DNA from: Eubacteriales bacterium
GTDB taxonomy: Bacteria > Bacillota > Clostridia > Oscillospirales > CAG-272
Length of the DNA: 61,135 nt
Direction of reading: 5' to 3'
NCBI GenBank assembly: GCA_045632805.1
Contig: JAZQXI010000125.1
Span: 1-61,135 of the forward strand
This document shows positions 6,961 through 45,954 of this stretch, piece by piece (positions within the stretch are counted from its first letter, which is position 1; every line of letters starts with the position of its first letter). Position numbers and translations under genes: made by a program. Under the pieces are notes generated by a model, which ran no database searches, was not told the DNA's origin, and saw only the letters and a list, made by a program, of their open reading frames with translations.

Positions 6961-8343
6961 ATGCCGAATATGAATCCCAAAAAGAATCCCATGCCCTCGC
7001 AAGAGCCGCACGTGCGTGCGCACAATTTTGACGAGGTAGCTTTGGGTTACACCGAACAAATGGCGCTGGATGAGGCGGATCGGTGTTTGAATTGCAAAAA
7101 TATGCCTTGTGTCACGGGATGTCCCGTCGGCATTGAAATCCCAAGCTTTATTCAAAAGGTAAAGGTGGGAGAATTTGAAGAAGCCTACCGCATCATTACC
7201 GAGTCAAGCTCGCTCCCCGCAGTCTGTGGTCGCGTCTGTCCTCAGGAGCATCAGTGCGAGAGCAAATGCGTGCGAGGCATCAAGGGAGAGCCTGTTGCCA
7301 TTGGGCGTTTGGAGCGCTTTGTCGCGGATTACCACAATGCCAATATCACCGAATTGCCCACGCCCCCCGCATCCAACGGGCATCGCGTGGCGGTGATCGG
7401 TTCTGGCCCCTCGGGCCTTGCCTGCGCAGGTGAGCTTGCCAAAAAAGGATACCGTGTTACTGTTTTTGAGGCATTACATACGGCAGGCGGTGTGCTGGTC
7501 TACGGTATTCCCGAGTTTCGTTTGCCCAAGGCGATCGTGCAAAAGGAGATCGACACCTTAAAGGCGCTTGGCGTTGAAATTGCGCTCAATACCGTTATCG
7601 GAAAAACGCTTTCGATCGAGGAATTGCAAGCGGACGGCTTTGAGGCGATCTTTATCGGTACGGGTGCAGGGCTTCCGAGCTTTATGAAGATTCCCGGGGA
7701 AAATCTCAAGGGCGTGTATTCCGCAAACGAGTTTTTGACCCGCATCAATTTGATGAAGGCTTACCGCGCAGACAGCACAACGCCCATCCAACACGCGCGC
7801 CGTGTTGCGGTGGTTGGTGGTGGAAACGTGGCAATGGATGCCGCGAGAAGTGCGTTGCGTCTGGGCGCTGAAGAAGTCTTTATCGTGTATCGCCGTTCGC
7901 TGGATGAGCTTCCCGCGCGCCGCGAGGAGGTCGAGCATGCGATGGAGGAGGGCATCAAGTTCCTGATGCTCAACAATCCCACCGAGATCCTTGGAGACGA
8001 AAACGGTTTTGTGCGTGGCATGACCTGCATCAAAATGGAATTGGGCGAGCCGGATGCATCGGGCAGACGTTCTCCCGTAGCGATTGATGGCTCGGAATTC
8101 CTTTTGGAATGTGAATCCGTGATCATGGCGATAGGTACATCTCCCAATCCGTTGATCAAGTCCACGACACCGGGACTTGAAATCAACCGTCGCGGTGGTA
8201 TCGTGGTTGCCGAGGAGACGGGAAAGACCTCTTTGGAGGGCGTTTATGCGGGCGGAGATGCTGTAACGGGAGCCGCCACCGTCATTCTTGCTATGGGGGC
8301 GGGTAAGACTGCCGCACGGGCGATTGATGAGATGTTGAAATGA
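6961..8343 (+). CDS. nfnB: NADPH-dependent glutamate synthase-like / NfnB large subunit
   Basis: CLNCKNMPC...CP and CPQEHQCESKC Fe-S motifs, plus VAVIGSGPSGLACA and VVGGGNVAMD dinucleotide folds. Confidence 0.8.
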   Translation: MPNMNPKKNPMPSQEPHVRAHNFDEVALGYTEQMALDEADRCLNCKNMPCVTGCPVGIEIPSFIQKVKVGEFEEAYRIITESSSLPAVCGRVCPQEHQCESKCVRGIKGEPVAIGRLERFVADYHNANITELPTPPASNGHRVAVIGSGPSGLACAGELAKKGYRVTVFEALHTAGGVLVYGIPEFRLPKAIVQKEIDTLKALGVEIALNTVIGKTLSIEELQADGFEAIFIGTGAGLPSFMKIPGENLKGVYSANEFLTRINLMKAYRADSTTPIQHARRVAVVGGGNVAMDAARSALRLGAEEVFIVYRRSLDELPARREEVEHAMEEGIKFLMLNNPTEILGDENGFVRGMTCIKMELGEPDASGRRSPVAIDGSEFLLECESVIMAIGTSPNPLIKSTTPGLEINRRGGIVVAEETGKTSLEGVYAGGDAVTGAATVILAMGAGKTAARAIDEMLK

Positions 8344-8387
8344 TCTCATAACGCATAAAACTTCCCACCATGTTCGCACAACCCCCA

Positions 8388-8556
8388 CAGTAAAAGTTTT
8401 CGCCCGCCTTTTTCAAAAGGCGGCACGGATCCAACGCCGTGTGGCGTTGGTCGCGCTCTGCAGAGCGCGAAACACTTCTTTTGGCGTTTCTTTTTTGTGA
8501 ACTTTTTTCTTTGCGCCTGCGGTGTCAAAGAAAAAAGTGGGTTATAGAGTTTGTAG
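8388..8556 (+). repeat. Structured intergenic repeat, copy A (5' half divergent, 3' half near-identical to copy B)
   Basis: From GCAGAGCGCGAAA to GAGTTTGTAG it matches 8700-8796 with a few substitutions. Confidence 0.8.
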
Positions 8557-8564
8557 CTGTTAGA

Positions 8565-8594
8565 GGGGCTGTCGCAATTGCTTGCGACAGCCCC
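8565..8594. terminator. GC-rich hairpin GGGGCTGTCGCAA-TTGC-TTGCGACAGCCCC separating repeat copies A and B
   Basis: Perfect 13-bp stem read directly. Confidence 0.5.
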
Positions 8595-8602
8595 TTAGAG
8601 TG

Positions 8603-8796
8603 TAGACAAAACTAACGAGTTTCCTCAGTTTGATGAAAGTTTTGATCAAACTTTTTCAAAAGTTTGTGGGGTGGAGGGGCAAAGCCCTCCTCGCTCTCCG
8701 CAGAGCGCGAAATACCTCTTTGGGCGTTTCTTTTTTGCGAACTTTTTTCTTTGCGCCTGCGGTGTCAAAGAAAAAAGTGGGTTATAGAGTTTGTAG
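8603..8796 (+). repeat. Structured intergenic repeat, copy B (full length, at least 5 hairpins)
   Basis: Starts TAGACAAAAC. Hairpins: AAACT..GAG/CTCAGTTT, CAAACTTTT/AAAAGTTTG, GGAGGG/CCCTCC, CGCTCT/AGAGCG and ACTTTTTTCTTTG/CAAAGAAAAAAGT. Confidence 0.85.
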
Positions 8797-8807
8797 TTGT
8801 TAAAAAA

Positions 8808-8847
8808 GGTGGTGAGTCAAATGCGAAAACGCATTTGACTCACCACC
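8808..8847. terminator. 18-bp perfect hairpin GGTGGTGAGTCAAATGCG-AAAA-CGCATTTGACTCACCACC followed by a T-rich tract
   Basis: Read directly. Its GAGTCAAATGC core recurs at 28423-28462 and partially at 9226-9247. Confidence 0.6.
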
Positions 8848-9026
8848 TTGGTTTTTGTTTTGGCGGCTAAACACCGCCATTTTTACCTCTTTAGAGGCCA
8901 AAAACAACAAATTTCCGGGTACGAAAAAGCCTACTGTCGCTTTTTTCGCGCAGGGGCTTTGTCAATGACTCAGCCCCACTTCTTCTATCATCGTGTATCA
9001 CTGTCAGAATCCAATCCATCCATTGC

Positions 9027-9214
9027 CACTTTTCTTTTGACACCGCAGGCGCAAAAGAAAAGTTAACAAAAGAAAACGCCGTTTGGGGGATTTAGCGCTC
9101 TGCGGAGCGCGACCAAGGCTCCGCCTTTGGAAACCGCAAACTTTTGATAAAAGACACGCGCAAGCGCGCGATCAAAACTTTCGTCAAGCTGACGAAAGTC
9201 GGTGATTTTGTCTA
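9027..9214 (-). repeat. Structured intergenic repeat, copy C (inverted orientation)
   Basis: The reverse complement starts GTAGACAAAA and ends ACTTTTCTTTTGCGCCTGCGGTGTCAAAAGAAAAGTGG. Hairpin positions match copies B and D with different stem sequences. Confidence 0.8.
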
Positions 9215-9225
9215 CAGTCTGCGAA

Positions 9226-9247
9226 GGGCGAGTCATTTGACTCGCCC
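9226..9247. terminator. Hairpin GGGCGAGTCA-TT-TGACTCGCCC downstream of the minus-strand AraC gene
   Basis: 10-bp stem read directly, immediately after the stop at 9256. Confidence 0.5.
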
Positions 9248-9255
9248 GCGTTTTC

Positions 9256-10074
9256 TTATTTTCTCTCACTTGCAAGATACTGTCGCGGTGTTTTTCCGTG
9301 GCAACGCTTGAAGGAGCGGATCAGATTGCAGGTGTCTCCAAAGCCGCACGCCTCGGCACACTCTTGTTCACTTTTTCCTGCGCGAAGCATGCGGACCGCG
9401 TTTTTGACACGGCATCGCATCAGATAATCACCAAGCGTGCTTCCCGTGTACTTTTTAAACGCGGTCATCAAGGTCGTTCGTCCGACGCCCAAGCGCCACG
9501 CAAGGTTTTCGGCAAGGATCTTTTCGGAATAGTTCTCTCCAATGTAGGTCAGCGCACCTGTTACATAGTGGGGAACTGCCGACGAAACGGTTTCATCCTG
9601 ACCCGAAAGCTCTAAAAGATGAGAAAGCAAACTCAAAATCAGTAACCGTTGACGAAACGGTTCCTTTTCGGCTTCGATCTCGCGGATTTTGCCTTTGTAG
9701 AACTCCGCTTGCTCCGTGTCCAAAGCGATCACTCTGCCGCTTTTGCCAAAGACTGCGCGCAATTGCTCCCATTCGGGAACGTAATCCGCGATAAATCCGT
9801 CCGAAAACAGAAGATTGAGACGGCTGTAAAAGGTGTCGGGATCGCGGTAAACGAAGTGCGGCGTTTTGGGACTTGCCAAAACGATGCGGCTCTCTGTCCC
9901 TTCCTGCACATGGTCGGAAACAAAGACTTTGACGTATCCCGTTAAAATCAAGCTGATCTCATAATAGTCGTGTGCGTGAAAATCCACCATCTGACTGCGA
10001 TATCCCTCGTAGTAATCCACGTGGCAGGTCTCCCACGTACTACCAAAATGCATATTATCAAGATTGACGCCCAT
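9256..10074 (-). CDS. AraC-family transcriptional regulator (cupin sensor + HTH)
   Basis: The C-terminal LAWRLGVGRTTLMTAFKKYTG...ECAEACGFGDTCNLIRSFKR region is a typical AraC double HTH. AGGAGG lies 8 nt before ATG 10074. Confidence 0.85.
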   Translation of the reverse strand: MGVNLDNMHFGSTWETCHVDYYEGYRSQMVDFHAHDYYEISLILTGYVKVFVSDHVQEGTESRIVLASPKTPHFVYRDPDTFYSRLNLLFSDGFIADYVPEWEQLRAVFGKSGRVIALDTEQAEFYKGKIREIEAEKEPFRQRLLILSLLSHLLELSGQDETVSSAVPHYVTGALTYIGENYSEKILAENLAWRLGVGRTTLMTAFKKYTGSTLGDYLMRCRVKNAVRMLRAGKSEQECAEACGFGDTCNLIRSFKRCHGKTPRQYLASERK

Positions 10075-10196
10075 TCCGTCACCTCCTTTTCTCATATTCT
10101 ATCACATTTTTGAATGATTTTCAATATAAAAACTCTGTTTTGATCAAAAAAATGAGAAAAATTGAACGATTTGCTATTTATATGAACGATTGTATA

Positions 10197-19130: not shown

Positions 19131-19871
19131 TTATTTGGTTCTGACCATTTTCCCTTTGGCAAACGCATCAAGGAGTCGGGTGAAGAGGGGAATGCGGAGC
19201 AAAAAATACAGGATCATCGCGCCGCCCACGTTTAAGATCAAGTCATCAACGTCACAGGAACCGACCATAAACGCAAATTGAAGCGCTTCCACTAAGGAGA
19301 CGCTAAGAGCGAGGGTTGGCAAAAAGAAGTACCAATGTTTTTGCGCTTTCCAAAAGCGAGGAAGAAAGAAGGCAAAGGGCATAAACGCGCACATGTTGCC
19401 AAGAAGATTGAGCAGCATATAGTAGCTGTTAACGTAACCGTGCAAAAAGCCTTGAATATAGACCTGGTAAATACTGCGGAAGGGTTGCATGTTCACAAAG
19501 CGACTCATGTAGTAGTCGCGCCCACCGTCGGGATCATCGGAGAGAAGCGCATTTCGCCCCATTCCTTTATCCAAAAGGGTAAAGTTAAAGAGCATGTAGA
19601 GATAAAGAGCAAAAAAGAGCCACATCAAAACAGTCATCACGCGTCCGTTCTGCGTGCGATCCAAGTACAGCAATCCGCCAAGATAGAATAGTGTACAGAT
19701 CAACAGCATCAAAAACAAACGGAAGATGGCTGACTTCGGAAATTGATCGGCATGCAGATGCACCTGCCACTCGGAAAAGGCGAACAACAGCAAAAAGAGG
19801 GAAGCTGACAAAAACACCCAAAATTCAGCATGCCGCCAACCGGCTTCAAGCGGCTTGATCGGATTTTTCAT
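19131..19871 (-). CDS. VanZ-family membrane protein
   Basis: Multi-TM protein with the C-terminal VanZ-like signature EALQFAFMVGSCDVDDLILNVGGAM. Confidence 0.7.
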   Translation of the reverse strand: MKNPIKPLEAGWRHAEFWVFLSASLFLLLFAFSEWQVHLHADQFPKSAIFRLFLMLLICTLFYLGGLLYLDRTQNGRVMTVLMWLFFALYLYMLFNFTLLDKGMGRNALLSDDPDGGRDYYMSRFVNMQPFRSIYQVYIQGFLHGYVNSYYMLLNLLGNMCAFMPFAFFLPRFWKAQKHWYFFLPTLALSVSLVEALQFAFMVGSCDVDDLILNVGGAMILYFLLRIPLFTRLLDAFAKGKMVRTK

Positions 19872-28396: not shown

Positions 28397-28422
28397 AACA
28401 CACCGTTTCATATAAAAAATAA

Positions 28423-28462
28423 GTGGATGAGTCAAATGCAAAAAAGCATTTGACTCATCCAC
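28423..28462. terminator. 17-bp perfect hairpin GTGGATGAGTCAAATGC-AAAAAA-GCATTTGACTCATCCAC
   Basis: Read directly between convergent genes. It shares the GAGTCAAATGC core with 8808-8847. Confidence 0.6.
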
Positions 28463-38148: not shown

Positions 38149-38339
38149 GCGTACGGTATCCTTTCGACTTTTTTTTAGTATACCATATTTTTCCCGATTT
38201 GTCAACGCAGAGCGCAAAGTGGCAAAAGGCGCTTTTTCTTAAAAATGTATCTTTTTTGTGATTTTTTCGTTCTCCCGTTGACGGGAAGCTTTTTTTGCGC
38301 TATAATAAACAAAGAAAAAAACGGAGAGGAGGGCGGTTG

Positions 38340-45648: not shown

Positions 45649-45680
45649 GAGGGGGAACTTCTTTTCGGAAGTTCCCCCTC
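45649..45680. terminator. Hairpin GAGGGGGAACTTC-TTTTCG-GAAGTTCCCCCTC
   Basis: 13-bp perfect stem after the RraA-like gene. Confidence 0.6.
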
Positions 45681-45688
45681 ACAACCTT

Positions 45689-45890
45689 TAGACAAAACTA
45701 ATGATTTTCGTTAGTTTGATGAAAGTTTTGATCAAACTTTTTCAAAAGTTTGTGGGGTGGAGGGGCAACGCCCTCCTCGCCCGCCGCAGAGGGCGAAATC
45801 TATCTTTTCTTCGGCGCTTTTCTTTTTGCCAAGCTTTTTCTTTTGCGCCTTTTTGGTCAAAAGAAAAAGCGTCATCAACAAGCTTGTACG
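45689..45890 (+). repeat. Structured intergenic repeat, copy D
   Basis: The first roughly 90 nt are near-identical to copy B (TAGACAAAACTAA...GTTTGTGGGGTGGAGGGGCAA). Later stems differ from B by paired changes. Confidence 0.85.
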
Positions 45891-45926
45891 ATTGATAAAT
45901 TGCGCACTTAGGATCTAAAGTCTCAA

Positions 45927-45954
45927 GGGGGGACTTCTTTTTAGAAGTTCCCCC
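45927..45954. terminator. Hairpin GGGGGGACTTCT-TTTT-AGAAGTTCCCCC downstream of pheT
   Basis: Read directly. Near-duplicate of the 45649-45680 hairpin. Confidence 0.6.

Follow-up and report, generated by a model that had tools for sequence, protein, structure and literature searches.

BOX, REP/BIME, Correia, ERIC and bcr1 (the last from the Bacillus cereus group) are short, modular, multicopy intergenic repeats that are often cotranscribed with the upstream gene; like the repeats described here, they form hairpins that show compensatory changes, and assemblies break off at them to leave contig ends; we know of no report of a three-stranded covarying module in any of them. Long RNA triple helices of the major-groove type with a 3′-end-protecting role have been described in viruses, vertebrate long noncoding RNAs and eukaryotic transposons (PMC7583470, PMC13541005). 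The elements for nuclear expression (ENEs) of MALAT1 and MEN-beta have counterparts in the PAN RNA of KSHV (the herpesvirus of Kaposi's sarcoma) and in plant and fungal transposon RNAs, and the bacterial triple helices in reviews of 2020 and 2026 are riboswitches and group II introns only (PMC7583470, PMC13541005). Here we analyze a repeat in a 61,135-nt stretch of DNA from a Eubacteriales bacterium (contig JAZQXI010000125.1 of assembly GCA_045632805.1; the whole stretch is called the window below), whose four copies there, A to D, each carry a predicted triple-helix pseudoknot of ENE-like design.

Copies A, B and C lie in a gap without open reading frames (ORFs) at 8344-9255, which at 912 nt is the longest in the window (the second longest is 554 nt), as an earlier reading made from the letters alone (the sequence-only reading) had said. 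That reading had also described four copies of one multihairpin element, and a profile built from these four and run against the window with nhmmer returned exactly them as credible copies: B at 8603-8796 (E = 1e-64), D at 45689-45888 (2e-56), C at 9214-9025 on the minus strand (2e-50) and A at 8389-8556 (1e-46). Weak profile matches at 38206-38323 and 19287-19362 were read individually and rejected as repeat copies. The four copies are each ∼150 to 240 nt long. Judged by its sequence, the tract is made up of mobile mosaic repeats that have piled up, some of which are miniatures of the IS1182 family of insertion sequences. The covariation described below shows that a core of ∼150 nt folds as a single strand into a P1 head, stems P2 and P3, and an H-type pseudoknot; the kind of molecule that does so is something we infer.

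The pseudoknot emerged from the alignment: RNAalifold joined a GGCG upstream of the T-rich stretch to a CGCC that lies within what had been taken for the loop of the 3′ hairpin, and the resulting pairing (the lower stem, S1) covaries. The module is laid out as GGCG - TTTCTTTTTG - turn - GCTTTTTCTTTG - CGCC - 7-9 nt - CAAAGAAAAAGC, in which the second U-rich strand (U-rich-2) is the Watson-Crick complement of the A-rich tract and the first (U-rich-1) is the parallel complement of the same tract, i.e., the mirror image of U-rich-2. The 3′ stem of the sequence-only reading represents two of the strands in a three-stranded motif; that reading missed the third, a mirror image that covaries with the other two. 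The helix GCGCC-TGC-GGTGT that it had drawn within the loop is not the conserved feature, because the hairpin of U-rich-2 and the A-rich tract extends inward by an average of just 1.3 bp, versus the 4 bp of the covarying S1; the CGCC of that helix pairs with the upstream GGCG instead. S1 abuts U-rich-1 directly and, in nearly all copies, follows U-rich-2 after one G, and it occurs in at least six covarying variants (GGCG/CGCC, GCCG/CGGC, GGTG/CACC, GGCA/TGCC, GCTG/CAGC and GGCGC/GCGCC). The geometry is that of an H-type pseudoknot, with a loop L1, made of U-rich-1 and a 4- to 7-nt turn, that runs parallel to the purine strand along the major groove of S2 (12 bp), and a loop L3 of 7 to 9 nt spanning the 4- to 5-bp S1. 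We predict 9 to 11 layers of U.A-U or C+.G-C triples, and 5 to 8 in a short subfamily.

The three strands change together. Where a G shifts position in the purine tract, a C shifts in both pyrimidine strands, as in AGAGAAAAA with TCTCTTTTT, AAGAGAAAA with TTCTCTTTT, and AAAAGAAAAA with TTTTCTTTTT. We counted copies without choosing on the third strand, took as informative those whose tract is not mirror-symmetric (n = 38) and searched up to 30 nt upstream. A perfect parallel complement was present in 38 of the 38, which hold nine distinct tracts, and an antiparallel one in 2. As a control, we exchanged the upstream regions between copies; 5000 such trials gave a mean of 11.8 and a maximum of 21. 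In an independent metagenome set, the third strand was parallel-perfect in 8 of 9 copies, and this set added one tract and one S1 variant (GCCC/GGGC) to those above. A generic three-strand scan hit exactly four sites in the window, one per copy and each in its copy's own orientation, and 46 sites in the repeat-bearing loci, against 0 in five block-shuffles of 742 kb. For tracts of at least 9 nt, the order U-rich-1, U-rich-2, A-rich was found 48 times and the other orders 1, 4 and 1 times. An anchored count scored 401 of 465 layers as canonical, which is a lower bound, the anchor being crude and prone to register errors. Because templated copying cannot make mirror repeats, we read the three-way covariation as a sign of selection for a pyrimidine-motif triple helix, and we consider formation of that helix in a single-stranded nucleic acid highly probable. 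Like H-DNA, the module contains a homopurine-homopyrimidine mirror repeat; H-DNA, however, needs neither a same-strand purine tract nor S1, both of which are conserved and covary here. A terminator/antiterminator switch between U-rich-1 and U-rich-2 was considered as well and rejected, since it would need a direct repeat rather than a mirror repeat (2/38).

The remaining stems of the core also covary. Across 43 copies from many genomes, 94.8% of the cells in P1, P2, P3 and S1 were paired, versus 81.5% after shuffling, and 139 cells had changed on both sides, versus 40 in shuffles, with 0 of 500 shuffles reaching the observed count; slid controls were 33 to 53% paired. Every stem listed in the sequence-only reading is present in the sequence, and its central claim, that equivalent stems keep their place and change by paired substitutions, came through the covariation check above shuffled background. 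In P3, the outer pairs and the loop (TCGC..CGCA..GCGA) are constant and the inner four pairs vary. Part of the paired stem changes could stem from palindrome correction by template switching, and one alternative extends this to the whole pattern: the copies would be functionless, decaying miniature transposons whose paired changes reflect mutation bias (template switching in quasi-palindromes), with no structure selected. The stems are indeed almost perfectly Watson-Crick with few G.T intermediates, as palindrome correction would give, and the many truncated, chimeric or module-inserted copies and the exchanged 3′ halves of A and B suit such decay. Template switching, however, gives inverted complements and not the mirror repeats found in all 38 informative copies and nine tracts, and both the specific strand order and the constancy of the P3 loop and flanks while the inner pairs change speak against it. 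Neutral decay fails on the mirror strand, as far as these comparisons go, and we regard it as very unlikely.

A selected triple helix of this layout has its closest counterpart in the ENE with its A-rich tract (MALAT1, MEN-beta), in which lower stem, 5′ U-rich (Hoogsteen) strand, turn or upper stem, 3′ U-rich (Watson-Crick) strand, lower stem, linker and A-rich tract follow one another as they do here. As in MALAT1, the runs of U and A are broken by C and G, which set the register (PMC7583470, PMC13541005); the number of stacked triples is similar to that of MALAT1-type ENEs, and, like the transposon ENEs, the module is carried by transposable elements. S1 closes a U-rich internal loop, and at the level of covariation the A-rich tract has both Watson-Crick and parallel Hoogsteen partners. 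The module differs from ENEs in being bacterial, in lacking an A-minor tract (its linker is not A-rich) and in showing no evident way to a 3′ end through RNase P or poly(A). Because the upper stem is a mere turn in most copies, an A-minor tract is absent and Rfam gives no match, we take the resemblance to be one of design, not descent, and the function to be predicted by analogy. Literature searches for bacterial ENE-like elements found nothing relevant, and an ENE+A-type triple-helix pseudoknot is, as far as could be checked, new for bacteria. A variant module at four of the loci that carry the repeat or an insertion sequence, which we label by L-numbers (here L046, L065, L038 and L003), has a real stem-loop (e.g., ATTTCGC-GGA-GCGAAAT) between the U-rich strands and a shortened U-rich-1; it is nearer to the canonical ENE with its upper stem.

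The second line of evidence concerns the vehicle. The terminal inverted repeat CAGACTGTAGAC is present in copies B, C and D, in B and C at the left end only and in D at both ends in degenerate form; A has it at neither. The statement in the sequence-only reading that each copy begins GTAGACAAAA does not hold for copy A, which belongs to a subfamily without that terminal repeat, and the reading overlooked both that three of the four copies have the terminal inverted repeat of an IS1182-family insertion sequence and that they insert at hairpins with duplication of the whole hairpin. A terminal-repeat pattern scan of viral contigs identified three 1.65-kb elements, 99% identical, with ends CAGACTGTAGAC...GTCTACAGTCTG, whose 513-aa ORF is an IS1182 family transposase (NF033551, an equivalog model, 468.7 bits against a cut-off of 270; Pfam domains DUF772 and DDE_Tnp_1_6). 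Full-length relatives of the repeats measure 224 to 311 nt, with ends CAGACTGTAGACMAAAG ... CTTTTGTCTACANNCTG, and the ∼190-nt unit described earlier is a part of them. Side by side, the ends of the miniatures read CAGACTGTAGACMAAAG / CTTTTGTCTACA(A/G)NCTG and those of the insertion sequence CAGACTGTAGACAAAGC / GTTTTGTCTACAGTCTG; the terminal repeats match those of an autonomous IS1182-family element.

The target duplications are of the same kind as well. Eight of 11 full-length relatives are bounded by flush direct repeats of 19 to 45 bp, each a complete hairpin and different at each locus, and nearly all left ends in the data set abut a GC-rich hairpin. The insertion sequence at L199 has the 22-bp hairpin AAGAGAGTGACACCACTCTCTT on both sides, with a T-run after the right-hand copy, and in a related 1613-bp element, with 82% identity in the transposase, hairpins of 41, 24 and 22 bp are duplicated flush with the ends. 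In the remaining copies of the 1613-bp element the flanks do not match, which recombination between copies explains: the left flank of L224 is that of the L223 site, on its right stands the hairpin found to the left of the L226 copy, and L226 and L230 have the same right flank. These ends and flanks show B, C and D to be miniature, nonautonomous derivatives of an IS1182-type insertion sequence, and comparison of the sites shows that insertion sequence and miniatures insert at the foot of hairpins, mostly terminators, duplicating the whole hairpin.

The published model for IS1272, of the IS1182 family, predicts hairpin duplication if the ends are joined to a cruciform at its 5′ feet (PMC5678879). 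The present elements share with it hairpins as targets (PMC5678879), and their terminal repeats are those of an IS1182-family element; yet the stem-loop that is duplicated whole here (19-45 bp) is replaced by IS1272. The miniatures differ from the IS1182-family insertion sequence in carrying structured cargo: the core is absent from the insertion sequence itself. BOX, REP, Correia, ERIC and bcr1 elements have no sequence relation to the present repeats and make a short fixed duplication, in contrast to the whole-hairpin target here. The insertion sequence is abundant in gut assemblies, where one cluster has 10,501 member sequences, and the flush duplication of whole terminator hairpins by so abundant an IS1182-family element would be clean natural evidence for structure-directed targeting at cruciforms or hairpins, whole-hairpin duplication having previously been only modeled for this family. 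Elements of the IS200/IS605 type and REP/RAYT elements were ruled out by the presence of terminal inverted repeats and long target duplications. Target-primed (RNA-mediated) insertion, considered for the variable length of the duplications, was dropped in view of the exact terminal repeats shared with a DDE transposon, and two candidate autonomous ends proved to be a degenerate remnant (L057:6513) and a truncated copy beside another repeat family (L070:7787). For a comparison of occupied and empty sites, the best relative of nfnB, the gene left of the tract, is 88% identical and has different downstream genes. At L069:1290-1600, the two copies of a duplicated target hairpin differ by an inverted loop (ACATTTTG versus GCAAAATG), and at L031:3760-4160, one target-hairpin copy has a G.T pair where the other has A.C, which looks like an exchange of the arms.

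Relatives of the repeat are widespread in one bacterial group. An exact-pattern scan with one genome per species gave at least 105 stretches; among the matches listed, all were from Clostridia, in metagenome-assembled genomes (MAGs) of gut Oscillospiraceae or Eubacteriales, plus Caproiciproducens galactitolivorans. Many of the listed matches lie less than 100 nt from a contig end, as expected because the repeat breaks assemblies. A metagenome scan added 63 stretches from human-gut, animal and fermentation samples, and profile searches recovered ∼140 copies. L012 (CAYLWB010000003.1), labeled Candidatus Peribacteria, carries this Clostridia-specific repeat and is probably mis-binned.

Like copy A, most copies in other genomes have no terminal repeats and start with the P1 head, GAAAGTTTTGATCAAACTTTTTCAAAAGTTTG. 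In about half of the copies only P1-P2-P3 is present, followed by other hairpin modules, and many copies are truncated, chimeric or interrupted by inserted modules. Inverted neighboring copies are arranged tail to tail, with their P1 heads outward, in 14 of 14 pairs, and head to head in none. A ∼350-nt double unit of two tail-to-tail cores occurs twice in one MAG (L001:6995-7343 and L068:5121-5471, 92% identity). Because most copies lack terminal repeats, about half are P1-P3 only and double units occur, the superfamily is, by its make-up, a mosaic with several vehicles, of which the insertion-sequence ends are just one. The earlier statement that the element belongs to no recognized family and has a BOX/REP/Correia style of mosaic character holds: Rfam returned no family at the gathering score and only noise at E-values up to 10. 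A BLAST search of phage and plasmid collections with copy D gave no match, the P1 pattern occurred in a single stretch of the viral contigs, a full-text literature search with the core sequence found no paper, and a tRNA/tmRNA scan of the tract found none.

One P1-P2-P3-only copy, without the triple-helix module, stops ∼10 nt short of a GTPase gene's ribosome-binding site (L007:7685-7800). This position is kept in at least seven loci (L007, L008, L110, L124, L126, L138, L162) and resembles a 5′ leader. Tandem repeats of ∼60 nt (GGTCAGCATGGCCCGCGCGGAAGCGGAAAGCGAATGAGTACCCTGCGCGGCGCGGGAC) adjoin the element at L007:7500-7680, and a long ORF called over them, which matches nothing in Pfam, is probably spurious.

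The positions of the copies bear on where the fold would act. In the window, A and B lie between the stop codon of nfnB and the first strong terminator (8806-8849 plus a T-run). Across the loci, the intergenic regions are 24 convergent, 20 codirectional and 9 divergent, with convergent ones over-represented. Among solo copies with the triple-helix module, the upstream gene is co-oriented in 29 cases versus 10 (29/39; p = 0.003), and among copies without the module in 38 versus 34. This context fits a fold that would act in the transcript of the upstream gene. In the mechanism that we propose, the core would belong to the 3′ untranslated region in the upstream gene's transcript. S1 would close the U-rich internal loop, the 3′ U-rich strand would pair with the downstream A-rich tract by Watson-Crick pairs, and the 5′ U-rich strand would lie parallel to the A-rich tract in the major groove to give 9 to 11 stacked triples. 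By analogy to ENEs and to REP- and BOX-type 3′ structures, the triple helix might then block 3′-to-5′ exoribonucleases and stabilize the transcript, and hosts would consequently tolerate or keep insertions behind genes.

We hold the parts of this proposal with different confidence. That the triple helix acts as RNA is somewhat favored; that the role of the module is 3′-end protection, which is argued from analogy, is a tentative suggestion; and the explanation as a whole (vehicle, cargo fold and 3′-end function) seems to us evenly poised. We therefore put forward only as a possibility that these repeats hold the first bacterial triple helix of the MALAT1/ENE type, spread behind genes in gut Clostridia by IS1182-family miniatures and other vehicles, shielding transcript 3′ ends and invented independently in parallel to the ENEs of eukaryotic transposons. 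If this is true, the ENE-type design was invented more than once, the module is a compact, easily tested stability element for engineering Gram-positive bacteria and anaerobes, and the build-up of repeats behind genes and the broken assemblies of gut metagenomes are in part explained.

Several results weigh against this proposal. The module lacks the upper stem-loop and A-minor contacts of an ENE, most copies having a G-C pair or two (1-2 bp) and a 3- to 4-nt turn in their place, and it matches no ENE model in Rfam at the gathering score, with only noise up to E = 10. There is no 3′-end signal in the module: G[CT]GG comes after the A-rich tract, and a tRNA-like structure is absent. About a quarter of solo module copies are not co-oriented with the upstream gene, and the orientation figures rest on crude ORF calls. 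No flanking duplication surrounds the copies without terminal repeats, whose mobility the proposed vehicle does not explain, and tblastn searches of the window and of ∼1.1 Mb of repeat-bearing loci turned up no transposase, so that miniatures and transposase were not seen to reside together. Finally, G.T pairs fill 8 of 1127 helix cells and A.C 19, which is unusual for a selected RNA, and the two strands fold equally well (z-scores -3.1 to -3.8).

The last point also undoes the argument for a strand-specific RNA that the sequence-only reading had drawn from G-U pairs: because G.T is rare and both strands fold alike, there is no strand-specific G-U signal. It fits an alternative in which the fold matters in single-stranded DNA rather than RNA, the hairpins and a T.A-T/C+.G-C triplex forming on one DNA strand (a lagging-strand template, or a transposition or repair intermediate) and serving the spread or maintenance of the repeat, e.g., as a recognition or pausing structure. 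The lower stem and the same-strand purine tract suit an RNA or a single-stranded DNA fold alike; the invariant P1 head faces outward in all 14 inverted pairs, as a recombinase site would, and the carrier transposase itself recognizes DNA hairpins. IS1182-family enzymes, however, are DDE transposases: double-stranded ends are their substrate, and the terminal repeats, missing from copy A, are all that they require. The co-orientation bias is confined to copies with the module (29 versus 10, the others being 38 versus 34) and so tracks transcription, and B and C lie in opposite orientations less than 600 bp apart, against a replication-strand rule. On balance we find a DNA function unlikely, and prefer the reading in which the triple helix acts in a transcript.

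A transcript could also be put to another use. The core might be a cis-regulatory RNA or a small RNA gene, a ligand- or protein-binding pseudoknot-triplex like SAM-II or preQ1-II that controls its neighbors. Its topology is that of H-type pseudoknot riboswitches with major-groove triples: as in telomerase RNA, SAM-II, SAM-V and preQ1-II, there is an S1, an L1 in the major groove of S2, and an L3 of 7 to 9 nt across S1, and P1-P3-only copies stand directly upstream of a ribosome-binding site in eight orthologous loci. The triplex here is, however, two to three times longer than in those RNAs and uninterrupted, without an obvious ligand pocket, and it is multicopy and 3′ or intergenic in position. 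Its neighbors are unrelated, no neighbor gene recurring across loci (the largest neighbor cluster comprises 6 of 286 ORFs); copies with the module favor 3′ over 5′ positions, and a consensus promoter scan of the tract gave no promoter-like site. We judge a regulatory RNA improbable and retain 3′-end protection as the tentative role of the module.

Within the window, the tract is bounded on the left by the nfnB/gltD-like gene (6961-8343), whose relatives are named NADPH-dependent glutamate synthase, and on the right by an AraC-family gene on the minus strand (9256-10095). Copy A (core 8392-8541, plus strand, from nhmmer and motif coordinates) has no terminal inverted repeat and belongs to the subfamily with the 5′ extension TGTTCGCACAA, as do L001 and L068. 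Its stems are a variant P1 hairpin CCGCCTTTT/AAAAGGCGG (8404-8423), P2 (8431-8450) and P3 (8451-8470). The three-strand scan placed its pseudoknot at 8483-8538 on the plus strand, made of S1a GGCG (8483-8486), U-rich-1 TTTCTTTTTTG (8487-8497), a turn (8498-8500), U-rich-2 ACTTTTTTCTTTG (8501-8513), S1b CGCC (8514-8517), a loop (8518-8525) and the A-rich tract CAAAGAAAAAAGT (8526-8538). A GC-rich hairpin at 8564-8595, an inverted repeat with 14 of 14 positions complementary, separates A from B and abuts the left end of B, like the target hairpins of the transposon family in relatives.

Copy B (8598-8802, plus strand) has the left terminal inverted repeat GAGTGTAGACAAAAC (8598-8612), no right terminal repeat and an A-like 3′ half. 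Its stems are P0 (∼8609-8631), the P1 head (8635-8666), P2 (8673-8690) and P3 (8691-8710), all on the plus strand, and the scan located its pseudoknot at 8723-8778 on the same strand, with S1a at 8723-8726, U-rich-1 at 8727-8737, U-rich-2 at 8741-8753, S1b at 8754-8757 and the A-rich tract at 8766-8778. The 3′ halves of A (8451-8562) and B (8691-8802) are 94% identical, and, on this identity, the 3′ half of B is exchanged with that of A. An intrinsic-terminator-like structure follows on the plus strand at 8806-8859, a strong hairpin of 20 pairs (8806-8849) and then a T-run.

Copy C is inverted (9027-9221, minus strand), with its left terminal inverted repeat at 9221-9204. On the minus strand it has P0 at 9199-9177, an interrupted P1 head at 9182-9141, P2 at 9130-9113, P3 at 9112-9093 and, from the three-strand scan, the triple-helix module at 9080-9028. 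The P1 head contains an extra GC hairpin with a T-run (9155-9170, minus strand) that scores as a minus-strand terminator and might halt transcription inside the element. The hairpin abutting the left end of C (9226-9247, from a terminator-type scan) may, on a weak comparison by eye, be a diverged duplicate of the hairpin at ∼8956-8980.

Copy D lies outside the tract, between convergent RraA-like and pheT genes. The sequence-only reading had its unit at 45689-45890; a unit is present there, and the full one is longer (45681-45925, plus strand), a full-length miniature with degenerate terminal repeats CAACCTTTAGACAAAAC ... GGATCTAAAGTCTCA that matches positions 2-234 of the full-length profile (nhmmer) and has duplicated hairpins on its flanks. 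Its plus-strand stems are P0 (45695-45717), the P1 head (45721-45752), P2 (45759-45776) and P3 (45777-45796), followed on the same strand by the triple-helix module (45813-45870). The flanking target hairpins, GAGGGGGAACTTCTTTTCGGAAGTTCCCCCTC on the left (45649-45680) and GGGGGGACTTCTTTTTAGAAGTTCCCCC on the right (45927-45954), are an imperfect duplicate pair.

The stretch at 8849-9026, which had been described as a hairpin-dense spacer, is no mere spacer: blastn and direct reading show that 8801-8985 (plus strand) is a copy of a second, unrelated multihairpin repeat family, whose other copy in the window is at 37377-37215 (minus strand). The family consists of the terminator hairpin, a GGCGGC..GCCGCC hairpin, CGAAAAAGCC..GCTTTTTTCG and a last hairpin, and its terminator hairpin also occurs alone at 28416-28462. 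A third repeat family, GGGACTTTTTGAAAAAAGTCCC ... CCTCAAAAACTTTCA, is common in the repeat-bearing genomes (L070:7860-7935, L094, L072, L027, L091, L084 and L107:5390-5460), and the hairpins flanking copy D (GGGGGAACTTC..GAAGTTCCCCC) are similar to it in style.

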